Shown here in pieces: positions 13,514 to 64,000 of a stretch of DNA of 64,000 bases. Below the pieces are notes generated by a model. The model was given only the letters and a program-made list of their open reading frames with translations, did not search any database and was not told where the DNA came from. Both the position numbers and the translations under genes were made by a program. Source of the stretch: Eledone cirrhosa (taxonomy: Eukaryota). The stretch covers positions 6,324,001 through 6,388,000 of the forward strand of contig OZ024763.1 of the NCBI GenBank assembly GCA_964016885.1, given 5' to 3'. How positions within the stretch are numbered: the first letter of the stretch is position 1; each line of letters starts with the position of its first letter.

Positions 13514-13656
13514 CTTTTCTTTGTGGTGTTCCTGTAAAATCAGCTCCAATTTCAACTTCCGTTTGTAGTTGAAATAGAAATTTTTACATTGGGCTTCAGT
13601 TTTGGTTCCAACTAAGTTTGCTATAGCGACCCAATCTCTACCGTGTTCTCTTAGAC
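13514..13656 (-). CDS. NCOR1: NCoR exon, SANT2 ([47 protein letters not shown])
   Basis: 143 nt; [10 protein letters not shown] signature. Confidence 0.97.
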
Positions 13657-14630: not shown

Positions 14631-14684
14631 CTTGTTTGGCAACTTCCATTTCTTCTTCTGTCCACCGTGACGTCTCCACACCAT
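14631..14684 (-). CDS. NCOR1: NCoR exon, SANT2 start (GVETSRWTEEEMEVAKQ)
   Basis: 54 nt; nearly identical to vertebrate VETSRWTEEEMEVAKKG. Confidence 0.96.
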
Positions 14685-15849: not shown

Positions 15850-15969
15850 CATCATTATTTTCGGGTACTAAAGGAACTAATGGCTCATTCGTTTGAGGGT
15901 TGGTACCGAGTTGTCGAGCAATTCTATTAAAACAAGCAGAACAGCAGCGAGAGATATCTTCCGTGATTT
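15850..15969 (-). CDS. NCOR1: NCoR exon, Cys-rich module 2 C-half (ITEDISRCCSACFNRIARQLG...ENND)
   Basis: 120 nt, phase 1/1. Confidence 0.9.
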
Positions 15970-16336
15970 CTGGAAACCAAGAGAAATATAGCAATCAGGA
16001 CTCAATACCAAAATATAGGGTGATTGTCGTGATGGCGGTGGTCCAAATTCCAACAGCTGACTAATCTATCTATCTGCCAAATGTGGTGAACTTTCATTCA
16101 GTTTATTGCCAGCTTCAATAGAAATTTAGGCAGTTTTGGCTGATTTTCTGCTTGTGTTGTATGTAAGGCCACAGCAGAAAATATAAGGAGCTTATTAACA
16201 TGTCTTTAAACCTTACATTACCATATTCCTAACGAAAAACATCGCCTAAAATTATTCAAATAATTTTGCATATAAACAAGAATTTGGAGGGATTTAGTAA
16301 AATACCTTTTTCTTTAATGTTTGGAACATAACACAA

Positions 16337-16541
16337 CCCTTTAGCATTTAAACTGGCTGTATCTGGCCAGAATTCTCTCACCTCTTTCTGTTCAAACCGG
16401 CTATAACTGGCCACTCGTACTGATGTTAAGGTATTGTTCTCAACATAAATAATATCAAAATTTCATAGATTCATTATGTGAGGTAAAGCCTTTACCGTGA
16501 AAATATAATGGTAAATATAGAATAATGTAGATGCTAAAGGG
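16337..16541. mobile_element. MITE family A nested in a MITE family B copy
   Basis: CCCTTTAGCATTTA...ATGCTAAAGGG|TTAA interrupts the family B sequence ggaacataac^aaggttcttac. Confidence 0.75.
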
Positions 16542-16933
16542 TTAAGAAAGGTTCTTACAAAAAATTATGATGGAAGGCTTTTAGATAAACAAAAACACTT
16601 AATGAAAGACAAGCCTATGGTATATATATATTGTAAATAATCAACAATTTGGAGGGATTTTATAATACAACTAACTTTCTCATCATTAAGCTGATGTTTG
16701 GAACATAACTTAAAGGTTCTTACAAAATCTTACAATGAAAAGTTTTTAGACAAATATAACCACCAAATTATTTTGAAAATACTCAAGAATTTTTAGGGAT
16801 TTAGTAACAAAACTTTCTTATTAAGCTGGTGTATATAACAAAGGGTTCTTCTTAAACCAGCGTTTGGTGTATAACATTTCAGTCCAGACTTAAGGGACAC
16901 CCTCTAATTAATGATTAGCTTGAAATTACTCAC

Positions 16934-17049
16934 GCATCTCTGTCAGTATTGGTTCTTTAATTTCGGTGGCTATTTCTGACCATTTCACAGAGAGAGGCCA
17001 AAGACGCTTTACTTTCCGTTTTGGAATTTTACAGGTAGGCACAGGACAC
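16934..17049 (-). CDS. NCOR1: NCoR exon, Cys-rich module 2 N-half (CPVPTCKIPKRKVKRLWPLSVKWSEIATEIKEPILTEM)
   Basis: 116 nt, phase 2/1, GTGAGT donor; not in the ORF track, found by reading the sequence. Confidence 0.88.
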
Positions 17050-17152
17050 CTGTAAACGAGCATATAAACAGGTGAGAGGTTTTAACCAATGAACGAAAAT
17101 TTTGACATTTTTCAACATTAGAATCAAATAATTTTATATTGTGTAAATTTAA

Positions 17153-17761
17153 CATCCTGTGATTTTATAGAAAATATCTAAATGTGGGTTGGTCATTTCA
17201 AATGTTTATAGTATCTTTACTAGAAGACAGATTGCTGTGGAAATTTACAGTTTTACAGTAAAGACTTTAATATTTAATGTGATGTAGTCATAGTGTTGTT
17301 TTGTACCAAATGTTTATAGTATCTTTACTAGTGGATAGATTGTTGTGAAAATTTACAGTATTACAGTAAAGACTTTAATATATAATGTGATGTAGCCATA
17401 GTGTTGTTTTGTACTAAATGTTTATAGTATCTTTACTGGTGGACAGAGTGTTGTAAAAATTTACAGTATTACAGTAAATACTTTAATAGTTAATGTGATG
17501 TAGTCAGTGTTGTTTGTACTTTTGAAGAATGCTGTGTTAATGTGGTTTGTTACTTCAAATGTTTATAGTATATTTGTTGATGGACAATTGTTGTGAAAAT
17601 TTACAGTAAATCCTACTAAGGACTTTACTAATTAATTGTTTCTACTTTTGGCACAAGGCCAGCAATTACCCAGTACATTACTAATTAATGTGATGCAGTT
17701 AGTGTTATTTTGTATTTTTCAATAAAAGTCTTCTACATGGGGTTTCATGTGGTACAGGGTG
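17153..17761. mobile_element. TTAA-flanked MITE family C with internal ~110-bp repeats
   Basis: TTAA|CATCCTGT ... ACAGGGTG|TTAA; related copies near 30260-30556, 37460-37622 and 40840-41216 (reverse). Confidence 0.7.
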
Positions 17762-18292
17762 TTAAGAGTTGATATAAATCATTCATCATATATATATATA
17801 TATATATATCATCATCATTTAATGTCAACTTTCCCTGTTAGCAAGAGTTTGATGGGTCTACATGGACCAAATTAGTACTGAAGCAGGGCTGCAGACCTCT
17901 TAGACAGACCTAAGGTCTGTATACCACTTATGCATGGTTCTATTGAATACAGAGAAGTTGTGTCTTTTAACACAAACTAAAGGGTCCTCCTAACCCCTTC
18001 AAGTTAAATATAAATATAACTCAAAGGGGTTAGGAAGGCCTTTCAGTTTGTGTCAATATAATAAAGTGATATAATATCTAATGTGATGCAGTTGCACATG
18101 TAACATCTATATCTATATATATACACCTCATGCATATATATAAATATATATTTAATATAGTATAATATAGTGAGTGAACTTACAGTACTTTAATATATAT
18201 ATTAGCAGGGAAAGGGGACATTATGACGATGATATATATATATATATATGTCTGTGTATATATATTTAGTATAATAGAGTGAGTGAACTTAC

Positions 18293-18473
18293 GGCACACA
18301 GCGAGACTGTTTGATGGAGCGGGCCCGACATGAATTACACACCCTCATATCAGGTTTCACCTCAGCTTCATTCAGAGAATACAGGGAACAATCTGTCAAG
18401 GTGAGTGGACGACTCATACTGAAATTCTCCAGCTGTAACTTGCACAATGCACACTGATGCACCCCTCCACCAC
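18293..18473 (-). CDS. NCOR1: NCoR exon, Cys-rich module 1 (CALC-x34-CNSC)
   Basis: 181 nt, phase 1/2, GTAAGT donor. Confidence 0.9.
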
Positions 18474-18534
18474 CTGCACAACAACAATAGGAAAATACTA
18501 TTTGATTCACAGAAGATAACAACATGACAATTTA

Positions 18535-19270
18535 TACCTTTCATTACCATATTTCTAATGAAAGACACTACATATGTCTTTAACCCTTCATTACCATATT
18601 TTTAGCGAAAGACACTGTCTATGTCTTTAACCCTTCCATTATCATATTTCTAGTGAAAGACTGCCTATGTCTTTAACCCTTCATTACCATATTTCTAGTG
18701 AAATACACTGTCTATCTCTTTAACCCTTTCATTATCATATTTCTAGTGAAAGACACTACATATGTCTTTAACCCTTCATTACCATATTTTTAGTGAAAGA
18801 CTGCCTATGTCTTTAACCCTTCATTAACATATTTATAGCGAAAGACACTGTCTATGTCTTTAACCCTTCATTACCATATTTCTAGTGAAATACACTGTCT
18901 ATCTCTTTAACCCTTTCATTACCATATTTCTAGTGAAAGACACTACATATGTCTTTAACCCTTCATTACCATATTTTTAGTGAAAGACTGCCTATGTCTT
19001 TAACCCTTCATTAACATATTTATAGCGAAAGACACTGTCTATGTCTTTAACCCTTCATTACCATATTTCTAGTGAAAGACACTGTCTATGTCTTTAACCC
19101 TTCATTACCATATTTATAGCGAAAGACACTGTCTATGTCTTTAACCCTTCCATACCATATTTCTAATGAAAGACACTGTCTATGTCTTTAACCCTTCCAT
19201 TACCATATTTCTAGTGAAAGACTGCCTATGTCTTTAACAGTTTCCTTACAATATTGCTAATGAAAGATAC
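18535..19270 (+). repeat. 48-bp satellite (about 15 copies) at the head of a family B MITE
   Basis: Unit ttaaccct(t)tcattaccatatttctaRtgaaagacactgtctatgtct, followed by the MITE body to about 19590. Confidence 0.92.
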
Positions 19271-19678
19271 AGTCTATGATTTTGAAAATTATTTTGAAAA
19301 TAATAATTACATTTTTCCCAAATTCTTTAACATAACTAACTTTCTCATTATTAATCAGGTGTTTGGAACATAACTTAACAAAAGTTCTTATACATAATTA
19401 TGATGGAAGGTTTTTTTTTATAAACATAAGCACTTTAACAGTTTCCATATATGGAGAGATTTAGTAATATAACTAACTTTCTCATTATTAAGAAGGTGCT
19501 GAACAAAAGTTCTTACATATAATTATGAAGGAAGGTTTTTAGATAAATATTAACACTTTAAAATAAACTGTTTTGTATCAGGATTTTAAAGAGTGAAATC
19601 ATAAATACATTTAGAGACAAACAGGATAGTTAGAGAAAGAGAGTAGACACCCAGACAAAGAGATATATAAATAGACAG

Positions 19679-19797: not shown

Positions 19798-19886
19798 CTT
19801 CAGAATCTGTTGATCCAGGAACTGGTGTGATGTCTGTAATTTCAGCTATATCTTCCGTTTCCTTATCAGGTTCTTTTTTAACACTG
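19798..19886 (-). CDS. NCOR1: NCoR exon (SVKKEPDKETEDIAEITDITPVPGSTDSE)
   Basis: 89 nt, phase 2/1; tandem TAGCAG acceptor; VKKE SUMO-consensus. Confidence 0.85.
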
Positions 19887-21085: not shown

Positions 21086-21366
21086 TTAATGGAGGTGGAG
21101 GCTGAACTAGCTGTTGAGGTGACAGTGGTTGTAATTGTGGCAGTTGCTGAGGTTGGTGTGGTGGTAGTGGTGCTGCTGCTGCTACTACTGCTGCTAATGT
21201 TGCTGCTGCTGCTGGCAGTGCAGCCGCTATTGCTGCTGCTGCTGTTGTTGTTATTGTTGTTGTTGTTAGAATTATTGCCGTTGTTAGAATTATTGCCGTT
21301 GTCATCTGATTCTTCCTTCACTGAGGTCTCTTCTTTGACGCCATCTATCGGCCGACTCACAGAAGG
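21086..21366 (-). CDS. NCOR1: NCoR exon, low-complexity N/S/T-rich linker
   Basis: 281 nt, TAG acceptor, GTATGT donor, phase 0/2 fits both neighbours; lies essentially within ORF 20995..21360. Confidence 0.85.
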
Positions 21367-22798: not shown

Positions 22799-22909
22799 CT
22801 GTGGTTTAGGGAAAGCTCGTCTTTTCTTGACACCTTGCTTTCGTAATAACTGTTTAAAATTTTCATTCTTTTTCGTTAGGTAGTAATGCAATATACAATC
22901 TGCAACAGT
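22799..22909 (-). CDS. NCOR1: NCoR exon, SANT1 C-part (TVADCILHYYLTKKNENFKQLLRK...PKPQ)
   Basis: 111 nt; the YYLTKKNEN HDAC3/inositol-phosphate contact motif is intact. Confidence 0.97.
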
Positions 22910-24794: not shown

Positions 24795-25028
24795 CTTTCT
24801 TTCTAAAAATGAAGCAATTAAACAGAAATTTTTAGGATGCTGGAGGTATTTTTCTTTGAAAATCATTTTCTCTGGTTGGGTCCAGATATTCAAGTGTTGC
24901 CGTTCTTTAAACTCTGCCATTGGATCTTCAATTAAGCCGTTGTTGTTGATGAACTTTAAACTGCGTGACCGAGCATCCAACATCATAGGTGGCACCACTG
25001 CATAGCTGCGCATTTTCTTATCCTCCTC
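24795..25028 (-). CDS. NCOR1: NCoR exon, deacetylase activation domain / SANT1 N-part
   Basis: 234 nt; AVVPPMMLD...KFINNNGLIEDPM...WTQPEKMIFKEKYLQHPKNFCLIASFLERK. Confidence 0.97.
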
Positions 25029-32266: not shown

Positions 32267-33723
32267 TAAAAAAAAAAGAGATTTATGAAGACTTATGCAT
32301 ATAACTAAGGGGAGATAATCATTAAGATTTATACAGCCTATACTGGATTTACAAATCAATTTAAACTGTTTTTTAGTCAATAAACTGAATACAAAAGACA
32401 ACAACAGACTTTATTTCGCAACCTCTTGGAGAATGTTTTTTTAAATATTTTCTTTACTTGGAATAAAATATTTTATAGAAAATAAAGAGGAGACTGAAGG
32501 AATATTAGCTACAGATCAATAATTATATCAATAACATGCCTGGCTTATCAATACTATAAACAACCAAATTAGTAATAACTGCATTCAATGTGTGTGGGTG
32601 TGTGTGTATGTGTGTGTAGGTGCGTGCATGTGTGTGGCTAAAACACAACTCAGGTTATATTTATAATCACACACACAAACCTTATTTGTTGTGGCCAACC
32701 TGCATATGTATGTATATATATACATATATACACACACATAAACATACATGAGTGTGTGTGAGAATGTATACATGCGTGTCTGTATACATATATATATGCA
32801 TACACATATATATACACATACCCAATATATTCATTAAATGTACTTGTCAACCTATGTATGCATGTGTATATATATATACACACACACATACACATGTGAA
32901 GGTAAGGTGTACATGTGTCTGTATGTGTGTGTGTATATATATATATATATATGGTTTATGTATATATGTGGTGTGGTGTGTGCGGGCTAAAACACAACTA
33001 AGGAAGGTATATATAATATATATAATATATATATATATATATACAAACAATAAGCATAAAATATTCTTGCCAACCTGTGTAATGTGTCAGGTTGGGTTTT
33101 CACCTGCCCACAGCTCTGGTTTAACCTGGAGATTACACAGGAAAATTATCCATCACTGTACAATTCAACATCATTATCATAGCAATACAAACTATATATA
33201 TATATATATATATATATAACAACAAACACTCAATGAAAATATAGATAGAATATAAATTTTTTTTCCAATAAAATAAAATAAATACAACACATTTACTGAG
33301 ATGGAAATCTTTGAACACTTAAGAATGAAATAAATTTCACAAATGGCTAATATATATATGTATAATATATATATATATATATATATTTTTGCCACAATTC
33401 AAATAATCTTTTAAAAGTATTATTATATATATATATATATATATGAAAAAATTAAGTTATGCCAGATATTTTAAAACATTTGAAATAAAAGTTAAAATAT
33501 ATATATATGGAATAGAAATAGTTTAAGATTCTTCAATGTCGTTAGTTTTAATTCATGAAACTCCAAAAGTAATTAATGTAAACCGATAACCGATAAGTTA
33601 ACGAGCATATTAGACAAGTTTAAAAGTTTGAAATCTATTTGCTTTTTAATTAATTATGAAAAGTTACCATAATTTATATAACTATAAACCACACCCCCAG
33701 CAAGGAGGGAAGCCAATTGTGAG

Positions 33724-35210
33724 GTCAGACCAAGGAAATAATATTTCCAATGGTCTTTCTATTGCTGACACTATCTGTCAGAAGAAAGGAACTGATCATC
33801 AGATCAGACCAAGGAAACAATGTTTCCATTGGTCTTTCCATAGCTGATACTATCTGTCAGTCACAACTCCTGGCAGAAGAAAGGAGCTGATCATCAGATC
33901 AGACCAAGGAAATACTGTTTCTAACGGTCTTTCCAAAGCTGATACTATCTGTCAGTCACAACTCCTGGCAGAAGAAAGGAGCTGATCATCAGATCAGACC
34001 AAGGAAATACTGTTTCTAACGGTCTTTCCATAGCTGATACTATCTGTCAGTCACAACTCCTGGCAGAAGAAAGGAGCTGATCATCAGATCAGACCAAGGA
34101 AATACTGTTTCTAACGGTCTTTCCAAAGCTGATACTATCTGTCAGTCACAACTCCTGGCAGAAGAAAGGAGCTGATCATCAGATCAGACCAAGGAAATAC
34201 TGTTTCTAACGGTCTTTCCATAGCTGATACTATCTGTCAGTCACAACTCCTGGCAGAAGAAAGGAGCTGATCATCAGATCAGACCAAGGAAATACTGTTT
34301 CTAACGGTCTTTCCATAGCTGAGACTATCTGTCAGTCACAACTCCTGGCAGAAGAAAGGAGCTGATCATCAGATCAGACCAAGGAAATACTGTTTCTAAC
34401 GGTCTTTCCATAGCTGATACTATCTGTCAGTCACAACTCCTGGCAGAAGAAAGGAGCTGATCATCAGATCAGACCAAGGAAATACTGTTTCTAACGGTCT
34501 TTCCATAGCTGATACTATCTGTCAGTCACAACTCCTGGCAGAAGAAAGGAGCTGATCATCAGATCAGACCAAGGAAATACTGTTTCTAACGGTCTTTCCA
34601 TAGCTGATACTATCTGTCAGTCACAACTCCTGGCAGAAGAAAGGAGCTGATCATCAGATCAGACCAAGGAAATACTGTTTCTAACGGTCTTTCCATAGCT
34701 GATACTATCTGTCAGTCACAACTCCTGGCAGAAGAAAGGAGCTGATCATCAGATCAGACCAAGGAAATACTGTTTCTAACGGTCTTTCCATAGCTGATAC
34801 TATCTGTCAGTCACAACTCCTGGCAGAAGAAAGGAGCTGATCATCAGATCAGACCAAGGAAATACTGTTTCTAACGGTCTTTCCATAGCTGATACTATCT
34901 GTCAGTCACAACTCCTGGCAGAAGAAAGGAGCTGATCATCAGATCAGACCAAGGAAATACTGTTTCTAACGGTCTTTCCATAGCTGATACTATCTGTCAG
35001 TCACAACTCCTGGCAGAAGAAAGGAGCTGATCATCAGATCAGACCAAGGAAATACTGTTTCTAGCGGTCTCTCCATAGCTGATACTATCTGTCAGTCACA
35101 ACTCCTGGCAGAAGAAAGGAGCTGATCATCAGATCAGACCAAGGAAATACTGTTTCTAACGGTCTCTCCATAGCTGATACTATCTACTGGTCACAACTCC
35201 TGGCAGAAGG
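33724..35210. repeat. 95-bp satellite, about 15 near-identical copies
   Basis: Unit gatcagaccaaggaaatactgtttctaacggtctttccatagctgatactatctgtcagtcacaactcctggcagaagaaaggagctgatcatca. Confidence 0.95.
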
Positions 35211-53816: not shown

Positions 53817-53976
53817 CTTTTTCACCTCTCCCTCACCACTTGTATCAATCTTAAGAGGTTGAGCCAAATCAGGACGAAAATCTCCTAACCGTGGTCTCTT
53901 AGATATGTGACTTGATTCAATGTTGGAAAAATGAATCATCTGAGCATTTTCCTGGTTCGACTCATAGATTTCATTC
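53817..53976 (-). CDS. NCOR1: NCoR exon (NEIYES...SKRPRLGDFRPDLAQPLKIDT...VKK)
   Basis: 160 nt AG/GT exon with the conserved KRPRL motif; lies inside ORF 53763..54026. Confidence 0.9.
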
Positions 53977-54234: not shown

Positions 54235-54704
54235 AGAGAGAGAGAGAGATAGGATGATTTTTTATGAATGAAACAGTTCTAGTCCTGTAGAATTTCTATA
54301 ATAAAATAACTATGGCTATACTCTACCAACATAGTGAGTACATTTTTTAACTATGGACACTTCCCAATATACATCGGGAACCCACCTATATATACATATA
54401 TATCATCATCATCATCATTTAACATCTGCTTTCCCTGGTAGCAAGGGTTGGACAGGTCTACATGGACCAAGTCAGTACTGAAGCAGGGCTACTGATCTCT
54501 CAAATAGGCCGAGGGGTCTGCACAGAAGAAGTTGTCATGTCTTTTGACACAAACTGGGGAGCCCTCCCAAACCTTCCTATGGCTGGCTGCCCTTTCTAAC
54601 ACCGACCATGTTTCCATGTTTACAGAGTGTACTGGGTGCTTTTATTGTGTAGATCACCAGCACTAGTATGCAAAGGCGTGAAACTAATATATATCATTTT
54701 ACTG

Positions 54705-55140
54705 TCACCATCATCCTCATCATTATCATTTTACATCCTCTTTTCCCTGCTTGCAAGGGTGGGACGGGTCCTATTCAGCACAGCATCTCTCCACTTGTCA
54801 CGGTCCTTCGTCATCTCCTCGGTGAGTTTCAGCAATCTCTGGTCTGCTCTCATACCTCTGCCCATGTTTTTTGTGGTCTTCCTCTACCGCGTCTTCCTTC
54901 TACTGGGATTTCTTGGCACTTTCTTACCCAGCGGTTATCCTCCATGTGCATCACATGTCCATACCACCTCAGCCTTCTCTCCTGCACACCACAACTTATC
55001 CCTCTTATACCCAGTTTCTCTCTCAACACATCCAACGGAGCATACTTGCTTCATTTCTCTCCAGCCGTCACATATCCTCTGCAGTTGCTGCCCATGTCTC
55101 ACTACCATGCAGCATCGTGCATCTCACGCAGGCATCATAT
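54705..55140 (-). mobile_element. RTE-clade LINE 3' fragment
   Basis: Translation LREKLGIRGISCGVQERRLRWYGHVMHM...VEGRRGRGRPQKTW is typical of the RTE ORF C-terminus; the 3' tail is shared with SINE family 1. Confidence 0.85.
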
Positions 55141-62020: not shown

Positions 62021-62420
62021 TATATATATATAGTGAAAGAGTGAAGAATAACATGGTCGGCTGTACAAAAAGGGTTTTATTTACAGTATTAACAATTGTT
62101 TCATTGATCAGGTGAGTCTAGAGGCCGATAATCACTTGAAGTTGAGTCACTCAACCTTAAATACAGTGTGTCTCTGATTAAATCATCGGAATACGATAAC
62201 TTGTTATCCCATATATATATATAGGGGGAGAGAGGGAGGGAGAAAAAGAATTCCTTTCTCAATGCCAGTTCATATGAAATATAGGATATCAATTTATCTG
62301 ATAAAGGGCTGGGTTCTTGATAAATTCTGGTCAATAGACAGATGGAAGAAAACCTTGGAATTTGAATTGATTAACAATAAAATATTTTTAGCTCTAGTTC
62401 TATATTTCTCTCTCTAGACG

Positions 62421-63960
62421 CCATATTTCTAATGAAAGACACTACCTATGTCTTTAACCCTTTCATTACCATATTTCTAATGAAAGACACCGTCTATGTC
62501 TTTAACCCTTTCATTACCATATTTCTAATGAAAGGCACTGTCTATGTCTTTAACCCTTTCATTACCATATTTCTAATGAAAGGCACTGTCTATGTCTTTA
62601 ACCCTTTCATTACCATATTTCTAATGAAAGACACTGTCTATGTCTTTAACCCTTTCATTACCATATTTCTAATGAAAGACACTGTCTATGTCTTTAACCC
62701 TTCCATTACCATATTTCTAATGAAAGACACTGTCTATGTCTTTAACCCTTCCATTATCATATTTCTAATGAAAGGCACTGTCTATGTCTTTAACCCTTTC
62801 ATTACCATATTTCTAATGAAAGACACTGTCTATGTCATTAACCCTTTCATTACCATATTTCTAATGAAAGACACTGTCTATGTCATTAACCCTTTCATTA
62901 CCATATTTCTAATGAAAGGCACTGTCTATGTCTTTAACCCTTTCATTACCATATTTCTAATGAAAGACACTGTCTATGTCATTAACCCTTTCATTACCAT
63001 ATTTCTAATGAAAGACACTGTCTATGTCATTAACCCTTTCATTACCATATTTCTAATGAAAGACACTGTCTATGTCTTTAACCCTTTCATTACCATATTT
63101 CTAATGAAAGGCACTGTCTATGTCTTTAACCCTTTCATTACCATATTTCTAATGAAAGACACTGTCTATGTCATTAACCCTTTCATTACCATATTTCTAA
63201 TGAAAGACACTGTCTATGTCATTAACCCTTTCATTACCATATTTCTAATGAAAGGCACTGTCTATGTCTTTAACCCTTTCATTACCATATTTCTAATGAA
63301 AGACACTGTCTATGTCATTAACCCTTTCATTACCATATTTCTAATGAAAGACACTGTCTATGTCATTAACCCTTTCATTACCATATTTCTAATGAAAGAC
63401 ACTGTCTATGTCTTTAACCCTTTCATTACCATATTTCTAATGAAAGACACTGTCTATGTCTTTAACCCTTTCATTACCATATTTCTAATGAAAGACACTG
63501 TCTATGTCTTTAACCCTTTCATTACCATATTTCTAATGAAAGACACTGTCTATGTCTTTAACCCTTTCATTACCATATTTCTAATGAAAGACACTGTCTA
63601 TGTCTTTAACCCTTTCATTACCATATTTCTAATGAAAGACACTGTCTATGTCTTTAACCCTTTCATTACCATATTTCTAATGAAAGACACTGTCTATGTC
63701 TTTAACCCTTCCATTACCATATTTCTAATGAAAGACACTGTCTATGTCTTTAACCCTTTCATTACCATATTTCTAATGAAAGGCACTGTCTATGTCTTTA
63801 ACCCTTCCATTACCATATTTCTAATGAAAGACACTGTCTATGTCTTTAACCCTTTCATTACCATATTTCTAATGAAAGACACTGTCTATATCTTTAACCC
63901 TTTCATTACCATATTTCTACTGAAAGACACTGTCTATGTCTTTAACCCTTTCATTACCAC
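62421..63960 (+). repeat. 48-bp satellite, about 32 copies, followed by the family B MITE body
   Basis: Very homogeneous unit; ends in aataatcaagtatttggaggga at the window edge. Confidence 0.96.
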
Positions 63961-64000
63961 TTTAAAATAACTTTCAAAAATAATCAAGTATTTGGAGGGA

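Follow-up and report, generated by a model that had tools for sequence, protein, structure and literature searches.

A conserved, apparently unannotated tandem C4 zinc-finger module predicted between SANT1 and SANT2 of invertebrate NCoR

The corepressors NCoR and SMRT are viewed as largely disordered scaffolds in which the SANT domains are the only folded parts and which reach chromatin via other proteins, a picture derived from vertebrates. Here, we describe a predicted pair of zinc fingers located between SANT1 and SANT2 of an NCoR gene found in a 64,000-nucleotide stretch of the Eledone cirrhosa genome (GenBank assembly GCA_964016885.1, contig OZ024763.1, positions 6,324,001 to 6,388,000 of the forward strand). 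This whole stretch is referred to as the window, and positions are counted from its first letter. An earlier reading of the window from its sequence alone (the sequence-only reading) had pointed to a two-finger module at this site, and the module holds up across invertebrate bilaterians: it is spliced, conserved and confidently folded by AlphaFold2. There is good support for a tandem C4 module that is conserved in invertebrate NCoR and apparently unannotated, and it is very probably a real folded zinc-finger pair, with one Zn2+ predicted in each finger.

Most of one NCoR gene occupies the minus strand of the window. Three mollusc NCoR proteins align to it exon by exon from about position 53900 down to 3600 (tblastn), Pfam assigns two Myb domains and GPS2_interact to the homologues, and one homologue (P0010) matches the human SMRT DAD (HDAC3-activating domain) with E 4.6e-33 and SANT2 with E 3.1e-21. 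From tblastn, Pfam and homologue comparison, the features of the NCoR/SMRT family, i.e., SANT1/DAD, SANT2, the GPS2-interacting region and a CoRNR box, are all present, and by sequence the host gene is NCoR. The fingers are encoded by three of its exons (lengths in nucleotides, nt):

18293..18473, minus strand: exon A (phase 1 to 2, 181 nt); encodes finger 1 as C-x2-C-x34-C-x2-C, with its Cys codons at 18453 to 18328, together with the beginning of the basic patch
16934..17049, minus strand: exon B (phase 2 to 1, 116 nt); encodes the C-x4-C knuckle that opens finger 2 (17048-17031), a loop rich in Lys and Arg (K/R-rich loop), a strand and two predicted helices
15850..15969, minus strand: exon C (120 nt); encodes the C-x2-C knuckle that completes the Cys set of finger 2 (15943-15932), a basic terminal helix and a short linker to SANT2

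All three exons have AG...GT ends and matching phases and are free of stops when spliced, and the same ends of A, B and C are obtained in all four stop-free splice combinations of the nine exons that span SANT1 to SANT2. In the spliced product, Cys residues are found at positions 7, 10, 28, 45, 48, 58, 61, 66, 107, 108 and 111, which gives the pattern C-x2-C-x34-C-x2-C-x12-C-x4-C-x41-C-x2-C. That three in-phase exons splice to this spacing had been proposed from the sequence and is confirmed both by the stop-free frame and by a 5615-nt contig of run X3, in which A, B and C are found back to back (contig positions 1946-2130, 2131-2244 and 2245-2364) with 0 mismatches and 0 gaps relative to the exons. 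Because both introns are skipped at GT-AG ends, this intron-free contig would represent a transcript. The joining by reads comes from this one run of one study, and the record does not label the run as RNA; in the same study, the X1, X2 and X4 contigs read through the introns, and among the matching runs listed by the run search none is recorded as RNA. Independently, identical joining of A, B and C is found in annotated proteins of other species.

Some relatives have three additional residues between the fingers and others do not, and the Branchiostoma records differ in this respect as well. The difference suggests a micro-exon that is alternatively spliced and would alter the finger spacing; no candidate for such an exon was found in the 1243-nt intron or in the X3 contig. 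Furthermore, the intron that follows exon A begins with 15 nt, donor included (18292, minus strand), that recur 109 nt downstream (18183), where no use as a donor was seen.

The sequence-only reading had made its proposal depend on conservation of the cysteines in other invertebrates. A word search with the abalone module yielded 53 matches among 78 candidates (44 with species names), and the eight-Cys pattern is kept in 53/53 of these NCoR homologues, which excludes a chance pattern. An alignment of 35 of the 53 (A1) has 18 invariant columns, including 9 Cys and 4 Arg; here, the four Cys of each finger are invariant in 35/35 rows and finger 2 begins with C-x4-C. Because the first Cys of the CC pair varies (it is found in 34/46 rows of a more diverse alignment of finger 2, A2), four ligands per finger are expected. 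The copy in the window keeps 24 of the 29 columns of ≥90% conservation, every Cys among them. A Pro that had been noted after the basic patch does exist, but it is a neighbouring residue: the Pro that is invariant in the relatives (35/35 rows of A1, 46/46 of A2) is Ser in the protein of the window.

Over the 78 pairs formed by 13 chosen representatives, the mean pairwise identity is 0.61 for SANT1, 0.50 for finger 1, 0.59 for finger 2, 0.56 for SANT2 and 0.23 for the upstream linker, i.e., finger 2 is, at the sequence level, conserved to the same degree as the SANT domains. In the same representatives finger 2 is separated from SANT2 by 3-23 amino-acid residues (aa) in 13/13, and the trimmed linker from SANT1 spans 35-266 aa. 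The net charge of the module ranges from +8 to +15 (median +12, n=53). Almost all of this charge comes from 31 residues that span both fingers (median +12, and +10 for the window), and it is concentrated after the fourth Cys of finger 1 and before the finger 2 strand. A duplication relation between the two fingers was considered and is not shown by hhalign (probability 2.9% local, 0.1% global).

Carriers identified in the word search include gastropods, bivalves, nemerteans, an annelid, spiders, ticks, a scorpion, a millipede, a barnacle, hemipterans, hemichordates, echinoderms and amphioxus. With a profile built from 35 of the 53 proteins, 266 proteins were recovered (E up to 0.001). The listing covered 150 of these, 140 of them new, and of the 30 new ones that were looked up 17 were named, namely seven nematodes, a sand fly, a moth, a beetle, two mites, two ostracods, a horseshoe crab, a sea cucumber and a mussel non-NCoR protein. 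Exon A alone, compared with proteins of 105-2000 aa, gave 0/9 candidates; full-length NCoR is longer, and the large C-terminal exon was therefore used as a query. No vertebrate, tunicate, flatworm or cnidarian is found among the named matches of the word search and of the listed profile matches, and Drosophila melanogaster Smr and Caenorhabditis elegans GEI-8 were not encountered by name among the matches listed. Out of four short motifs from human SMRT structures, three are found in no collected protein and the fourth in one row, which groups with mites. The human NCoR linker presumably contains no such cysteines. Based on this assumption and on the absence of vertebrates among the named matches, loss of the finger pair in vertebrates is likely, and the pair would have been present in NCoR of the last common bilaterian ancestor and then lost on the line to vertebrates. 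A putative short basic motif of the vertebrate linker resembles the basic loop and terminal helix and might be a remnant; a text search for it gave nothing.

A tree of the module and SANT2 (91 rows, quick search, 42/88 branches open) was used only to place unnamed rows; eight rows were omitted by name (chimeric, mis-spliced or non-NCoR) and short rows by length. Two proteins placed in a dipteran clade (P0086 and P0094) keep both fingers and lack SANT2, and the SANT2 domains of other insects score far below their own finger 2. In P0069 (Cyprideis torosa) finger 1 is duplicated in tandem, either by a real exon duplication or as an assembly artefact.

The abalone finger pair was modelled by AlphaFold2 as two small domains with a predicted local distance difference test score (pLDDT) of 85.5 and a predicted template modelling score (pTM) of 0.55, and finger 2 of a homologue, modelled alone, reached a pLDDT of 80.6. 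Each modelled finger ends in a CxxC at the start of a helix of 10-11 residues (model residues 46-55 and 108-118) with a basic exposed face. The K/R-rich loop lies in the least confident part of the model (blocks of pLDDT 72-79). In a wide fold search, the two-finger model matched 128 chains at Z ≥2 and none at Z ≥5, with a best Z of 4.0. Dozens of the rows are weak treble-clef matches to finger 1 (Z 2.4-3.4, root-mean-square deviation (rmsd) 1.7-3.8 Å), which aligns about equally to ZZ, FYVE, RIM and ribosomal fingers and to the P-element THAP (rmsd 1.7-3 Å, 33-50 residues). With finger 2 alone, the search returned only unrelated small alpha/beta folds (best Z 3.2). Pfam scans, PDB sequence profiles and a viral fold library gave nothing significant, nor did the ESM Atlas, where the best match was an arthropod cluster at 0.76. 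Thus, of the suggestion that AlphaFold and Foldseek would reveal a fold akin to THAP, ZAD or treble-clef domains, a confident fold and a weak treble-clef likeness of finger 1 remain, and no match is significant. As modelled, finger 1 is treble-clef-like. Finger 2 is probably also of the treble-clef kind, yet unplaced: its predicted elements fit a treble clef and no fold match supports the assignment.

Relatives of finger 2 are also found outside NCoR. Four proteins (P0127, P0133, P0166 and P0194) carry three tandem units, each composed of a shorter C4 finger and a finger-2 homologue, and a fifth (P0188) carries one unit. This family has a conserved C-terminal region, is undescribed and gave no Pfam, PDB or Atlas match. 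Its finger-2 repeats match finger 2 of NCoR with an hhalign probability of 98.9% (E 2.4e-17) and lack the K/R-rich loop, and the first finger of its units matches finger 1 at only 17%. An origin of the three-repeat proteins from a transposase was considered and is unsupported, with no RAG1 or Transib match. In P0153/P0221 (Mytilus) and P0193, an NCoR-like finger 2 stands alone at the end of an unrelated protein, and the Mytilus finger 2 starts where exon B of NCoR starts, which suggests exon capture. From its occurrence in these proteins, finger 2 constitutes a mobile family in which the K/R-rich loop is special to NCoR.

What, then, could be the function of the pair? We tentatively favor, at somewhat less than even probability, non-specific anchoring to chromatin as its main job. 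The strongly basic surface shared by the two fingers would grip the backbone of nucleosomal or linker DNA with little sequence preference, such that HDAC3, bound to SANT1 and hanging from the flexible linker, would stay near its histone substrate. DNA binding by the pair is a reasonable inference. The finger-2 repeats outside NCoR do without the K/R-rich loop, which is therefore dispensable for the fold and kept specifically in NCoR. In Ada2 and in Rsc8/Swi3, too, SANT is immediately preceded by a zinc finger, and complexes containing these proteins are among the weak matches to finger 1. The finger pair would cooperate with the adjoining SANT2, and vertebrate SANT2 is reported to bind unacetylated H4 tails (PMC3590189, accessible part).

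A number of observations weigh against such anchoring. The models are those of homologues (P0001, 68% identical over the module) rather than of the protein encoded in the window, and because of the pTM of 0.55 the relative position of the fingers, and hence the shared basic surface, is uncertain. Foldseek returned 0 matches at E up to 0.001, and with finger 2 alone no zinc finger reached Z ≥2. In addition, the copy in the window lies at the low end of the charge range and carries Ser in place of the invariant Pro as well as of a conserved Arg; these replacements reflect real divergence because the X3 contig agrees with the window there. The basic loop also resembles a classical nuclear localisation signal, and ZZ, FYVE and RIM domains, which account for most of the treble-clef matches to finger 1, bind peptides or lipids rather than DNA. 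Finally, coupling to SANT2 is not obligatory, because the two dipteran-clade proteins keep both fingers without SANT2, a loss that agrees with the statement, in the accessible part of PMC3590189, that SMRTER lacks a second SANT.

Other readings assign the fingers to known families. THAP domains are of the C2CH type (C-x2-4-C-x35-50-C-x2-H), with invariant P/W/F/P (the W at the centre of helix 1) and an AVPTIF box, and loop 4/AVPTIF is termed indispensable for their DNA binding (accessible part of 10.1101/2021.02.01.429122). The sequence-only reading regarded finger 2 as THAP-like with His replaced by Cys, in which case a two-stranded sheet would read specific DNA and invertebrate NCoR would target itself. 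The spacing C-x4-C-x41-C-x2 does lie within the THAP range given in that source, a hydrophobic-x2-hydrophobic-Pro strand is present (Pro in 46/46 rows), the predicted order strand-helix-strand fits a beta-alpha-beta fold, and conserved Arg/Lys residues are found on or adjoining both predicted strands. Yet the fourth ligand is Cys, not His, in 46/46 rows and in the window, an 11-residue helix follows the last Cys in place of loop 4, and the AVPTIF box is absent from the alignment. Furthermore, the Trp (37/46 rows) follows the Pro by 3 residues and is not part of the main predicted helix, Phe follows the last ligand in 25/46 rows with no second Pro motif, and the invariant Pro itself is Ser in the window. 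Pfam THAP matched 0/46 and 0/35 rows at E up to 10, where the HMMER filters drop weak matches. The THAP structure 3KDE aligned, weakly, to finger 1 instead (Z 2.9, rmsd 2.9 Å, 45 residues), and with finger 2 alone no THAP or ZAD chain is found among the matches listed, a result that by itself excludes neither family. The THAP-like assignment was thus not upheld and sequence-specific reading of this kind is improbable, although finger 2 may present basic residues to DNA in the manner of THAP.

It is scarcely probable that NCoR molecules are paired by the fingers acting as ZAD-like homodimerisation domains. Each finger has four Cys, invariant in 35/35 rows as in ZADs (the zinc itself being predicted), and a helix before the last knuckle; ZAD structures rank 1, 2, 3 and 6 in the wide search (Z 4.0, 3.5, 3.5 and 3.2), and the M1BP ZAD is the top Foldseek row for finger 2 and its only match to a zinc finger (E 4.1, template modelling score 0.42). 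The four ZAD alignments, however, have an rmsd of 4.4-5.6 Å over 69-70 aligned residues (5.1 Å and 69 for the top Z of 4.0), and because all of them span both fingers they do not match one domain to another; when M1BP was re-aligned, its Z dropped below 2. The ZAD dimer is formed by a long amphipathic helix of about 26 residues (66-91 in CG2712; PMC7913770, accessible part), which is missing from both fingers, where the terminal helices comprise 10 and 11 residues and are basic. Pfam zf-AD matched 0/35 and 0/46 rows at E up to 10, and PDB profile searches returned no ZAD chain. Of the earlier description of finger 1 as treble-clef/ZAD-like, the first part is thus retained, from weak matches to many treble clefs, and the second is not. 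Taken together, the sequence and model comparisons indicate that the pair is not a member of the THAP or the ZAD family.

The pair could instead serve protein docking in the way of ZZ, RIM or LIM domains, with an acidic partner, a histone tail, a subunit of the NCoR complex (HDAC3, TBL1/Ebi or GPS2) or a transcription factor. This is a credible but rather unlikely alternative: ZZ domains (rmsd 1.8-2.3 Å, 33-37 residues) and the RIM finger are among the matches to finger 1 with the lowest rmsd, conservation of SANT-like degree over the whole surface suits a fixed partner, and NCoR is otherwise a hub of protein interactions (accessible part of PMC2678994). On the other hand, the conserved exposed residues are nearly all Lys/Arg, in a patch of about +12, and the ZZ matches have Z ≤3.3, comparable to many unrelated rows. 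Highly improbable is a role as a scaffold that presents a nuclear localisation signal or that binds an acidic small molecule, e.g., inositol phosphate, near HDAC3. The K/R-rich loop resembles a monopartite signal and is located in the least confident part of the model, and FYVE domains are found among the matches to finger 1, but a localisation signal needs no folded pair of 120 residues conserved at 50-59% across phyla, a separate basic stretch is found after SANT1, and the FYVE lipid-binding motif is not in the sequence. The boldest scenario is a long shot: ancestral bilaterian NCoR would be a self-targeting repressor in which the pair reads specific DNA and brings HDAC3 to it with no need of a nuclear receptor, a role that it would have kept in flies, worms, molluscs and amphioxus; vertebrates would have deleted the pair and become wholly dependent on recruitment by transcription factors, and the finger would also have founded the undescribed family with three repeats in other animal proteins.

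Chromatin anchoring thus remains the reading that we favor, and if DNA or nucleosome binding is true, engagement of chromatin by NCoR-HDAC3 differs between vertebrates and other bilaterians, which bears on the transfer of results from fly Smr and worm GEI-8 to humans. Independently of this function, invertebrate bilaterian NCoR has a further, predicted folded unit that is conserved like SANT and kept even where SANT2 of insects has decayed or is gone. The copy of Pfam searched contains no model for the zinc-finger family that the module defines, and this family has members outside NCoR. It comprises about 120 residues and is present in genetically tractable animals, which makes its role a directly testable question.

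The neighbouring exons of the gene were placed by alignment to mollusc NCoR in the spliced frame, except for the two linker exons, which are in frame and predicted:

24795..25028, minus strand: SANT1/DAD, first exon
22799..22909, minus strand: SANT1/DAD, second exon, and the basic stretch after SANT1
21086..21366, minus strand: predicted low-complexity (Asn/Ser/Thr) linker exon, SANT1 to finger 1
19798..19886, minus strand: predicted acidic linker exon directly upstream of finger 1
14631..14684, minus strand: SANT2, first exon
13514..13656, minus strand: SANT2, second exon

Intronic and flanking tandem arrays are found at 18531-19278, 33700-35100 and 62381-63967; they are composed of a 47-base-pair unit, which recurs elsewhere in the window, and a 95-base-pair unit. 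Broken frames at 54700-55130 (minus strand) resemble what we take to be the C-terminal end of an RTE-type LINE reverse transcriptase.

A literature search returned no description of the finger module; most subscription papers lay outside its reach, and figures and supplements were not covered. The module is not mentioned in the accessible parts of PMC3590189, PMC4554918 and PMC3507286: the word "zinc" is absent from the main text, as far as accessible, of the first (on GEI-8) and the second (on deuterostome NCoR evolution), and "zinc finger" in the third refers only to PLZF. The accessible parts of PMC2678994 and PMC12445670 also contain nothing on it. Newer Pfam labels on the matches are limited to Myb, GPS2_interact and PF27579. 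The latter, found on 44/53 matches, was considered as a model of the fingers and rejected, being absent from 9 proteins with finger scores of 157-203 bits and present at 122 bits. A CoRNR-box profile, which was built from positives and is thus partly circular, separates the two groups (≥29 bits in 44/44, ≤26 bits in 9/9), and from these scores it is apparently the CoRNR box of invertebrate NCoR, not the finger pair, that PF27579 represents.

Among known systems, ZAD (zf-AD, PF07776; Grauzone 1PZW, M1BP 7PO9 and CG2712 6FP5) shares with the fingers a C4 site, the predicted treble-clef type, a helix between the knuckles and a last CxxC at the start of a helix, and provides the top-ranked weak matches. 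The fingers described here differ in their short basic terminal helices, in the C-x4-C first knuckle of finger 2 and in the lack of a profile match; moreover, a ZAD sits at the N-terminus of a C2H2 protein, whereas the fingers form an internal tandem pair in a corepressor. With THAP (PF05485; P-element transposase 3KDE and THAP1), finger 2 has in common the C-x4-C knuckle, the 41-residue spacer, the strand ending in Pro, the strand-helix-strand order and a basic surface, but it is C4 rather than C2CH, lacks loop 4 and the AVPTIF box, has its Trp off the main helix and gave no profile or fold match.

A comparable setting is that of the ZZ-SANT units in Ada2 and Rsc8/Swi3, and of MTA/RERE, where a GATA-type finger lies beside SANT. 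Here, too, a treble-clef finger adjoins SANT in a chromatin-modifying complex, and weak matches to finger 1 include 6CW3 (Z 3.3, rmsd 1.8 Å, 36 aligned) and 6TDA/6V8O. The NCoR pair differs in that its two C4 fingers are separate and form neither a cross-braced two-zinc ZZ nor a GATA finger, and no sequence similarity to these proteins was found. Finally, the solved fragments of human NCoR/SMRT contain no match to the module. The gene in the window follows the domain order of the NCoR/SMRT family (vertebrate NCOR1/NCOR2, Drosophila SMRTER and C. elegans GEI-8), namely GPS2-binding region, SANT1/DAD, SANT2 and CoRNR-type box, and the invertebrate protein described here is set apart by a 120-residue, eight-Cys module before SANT2.

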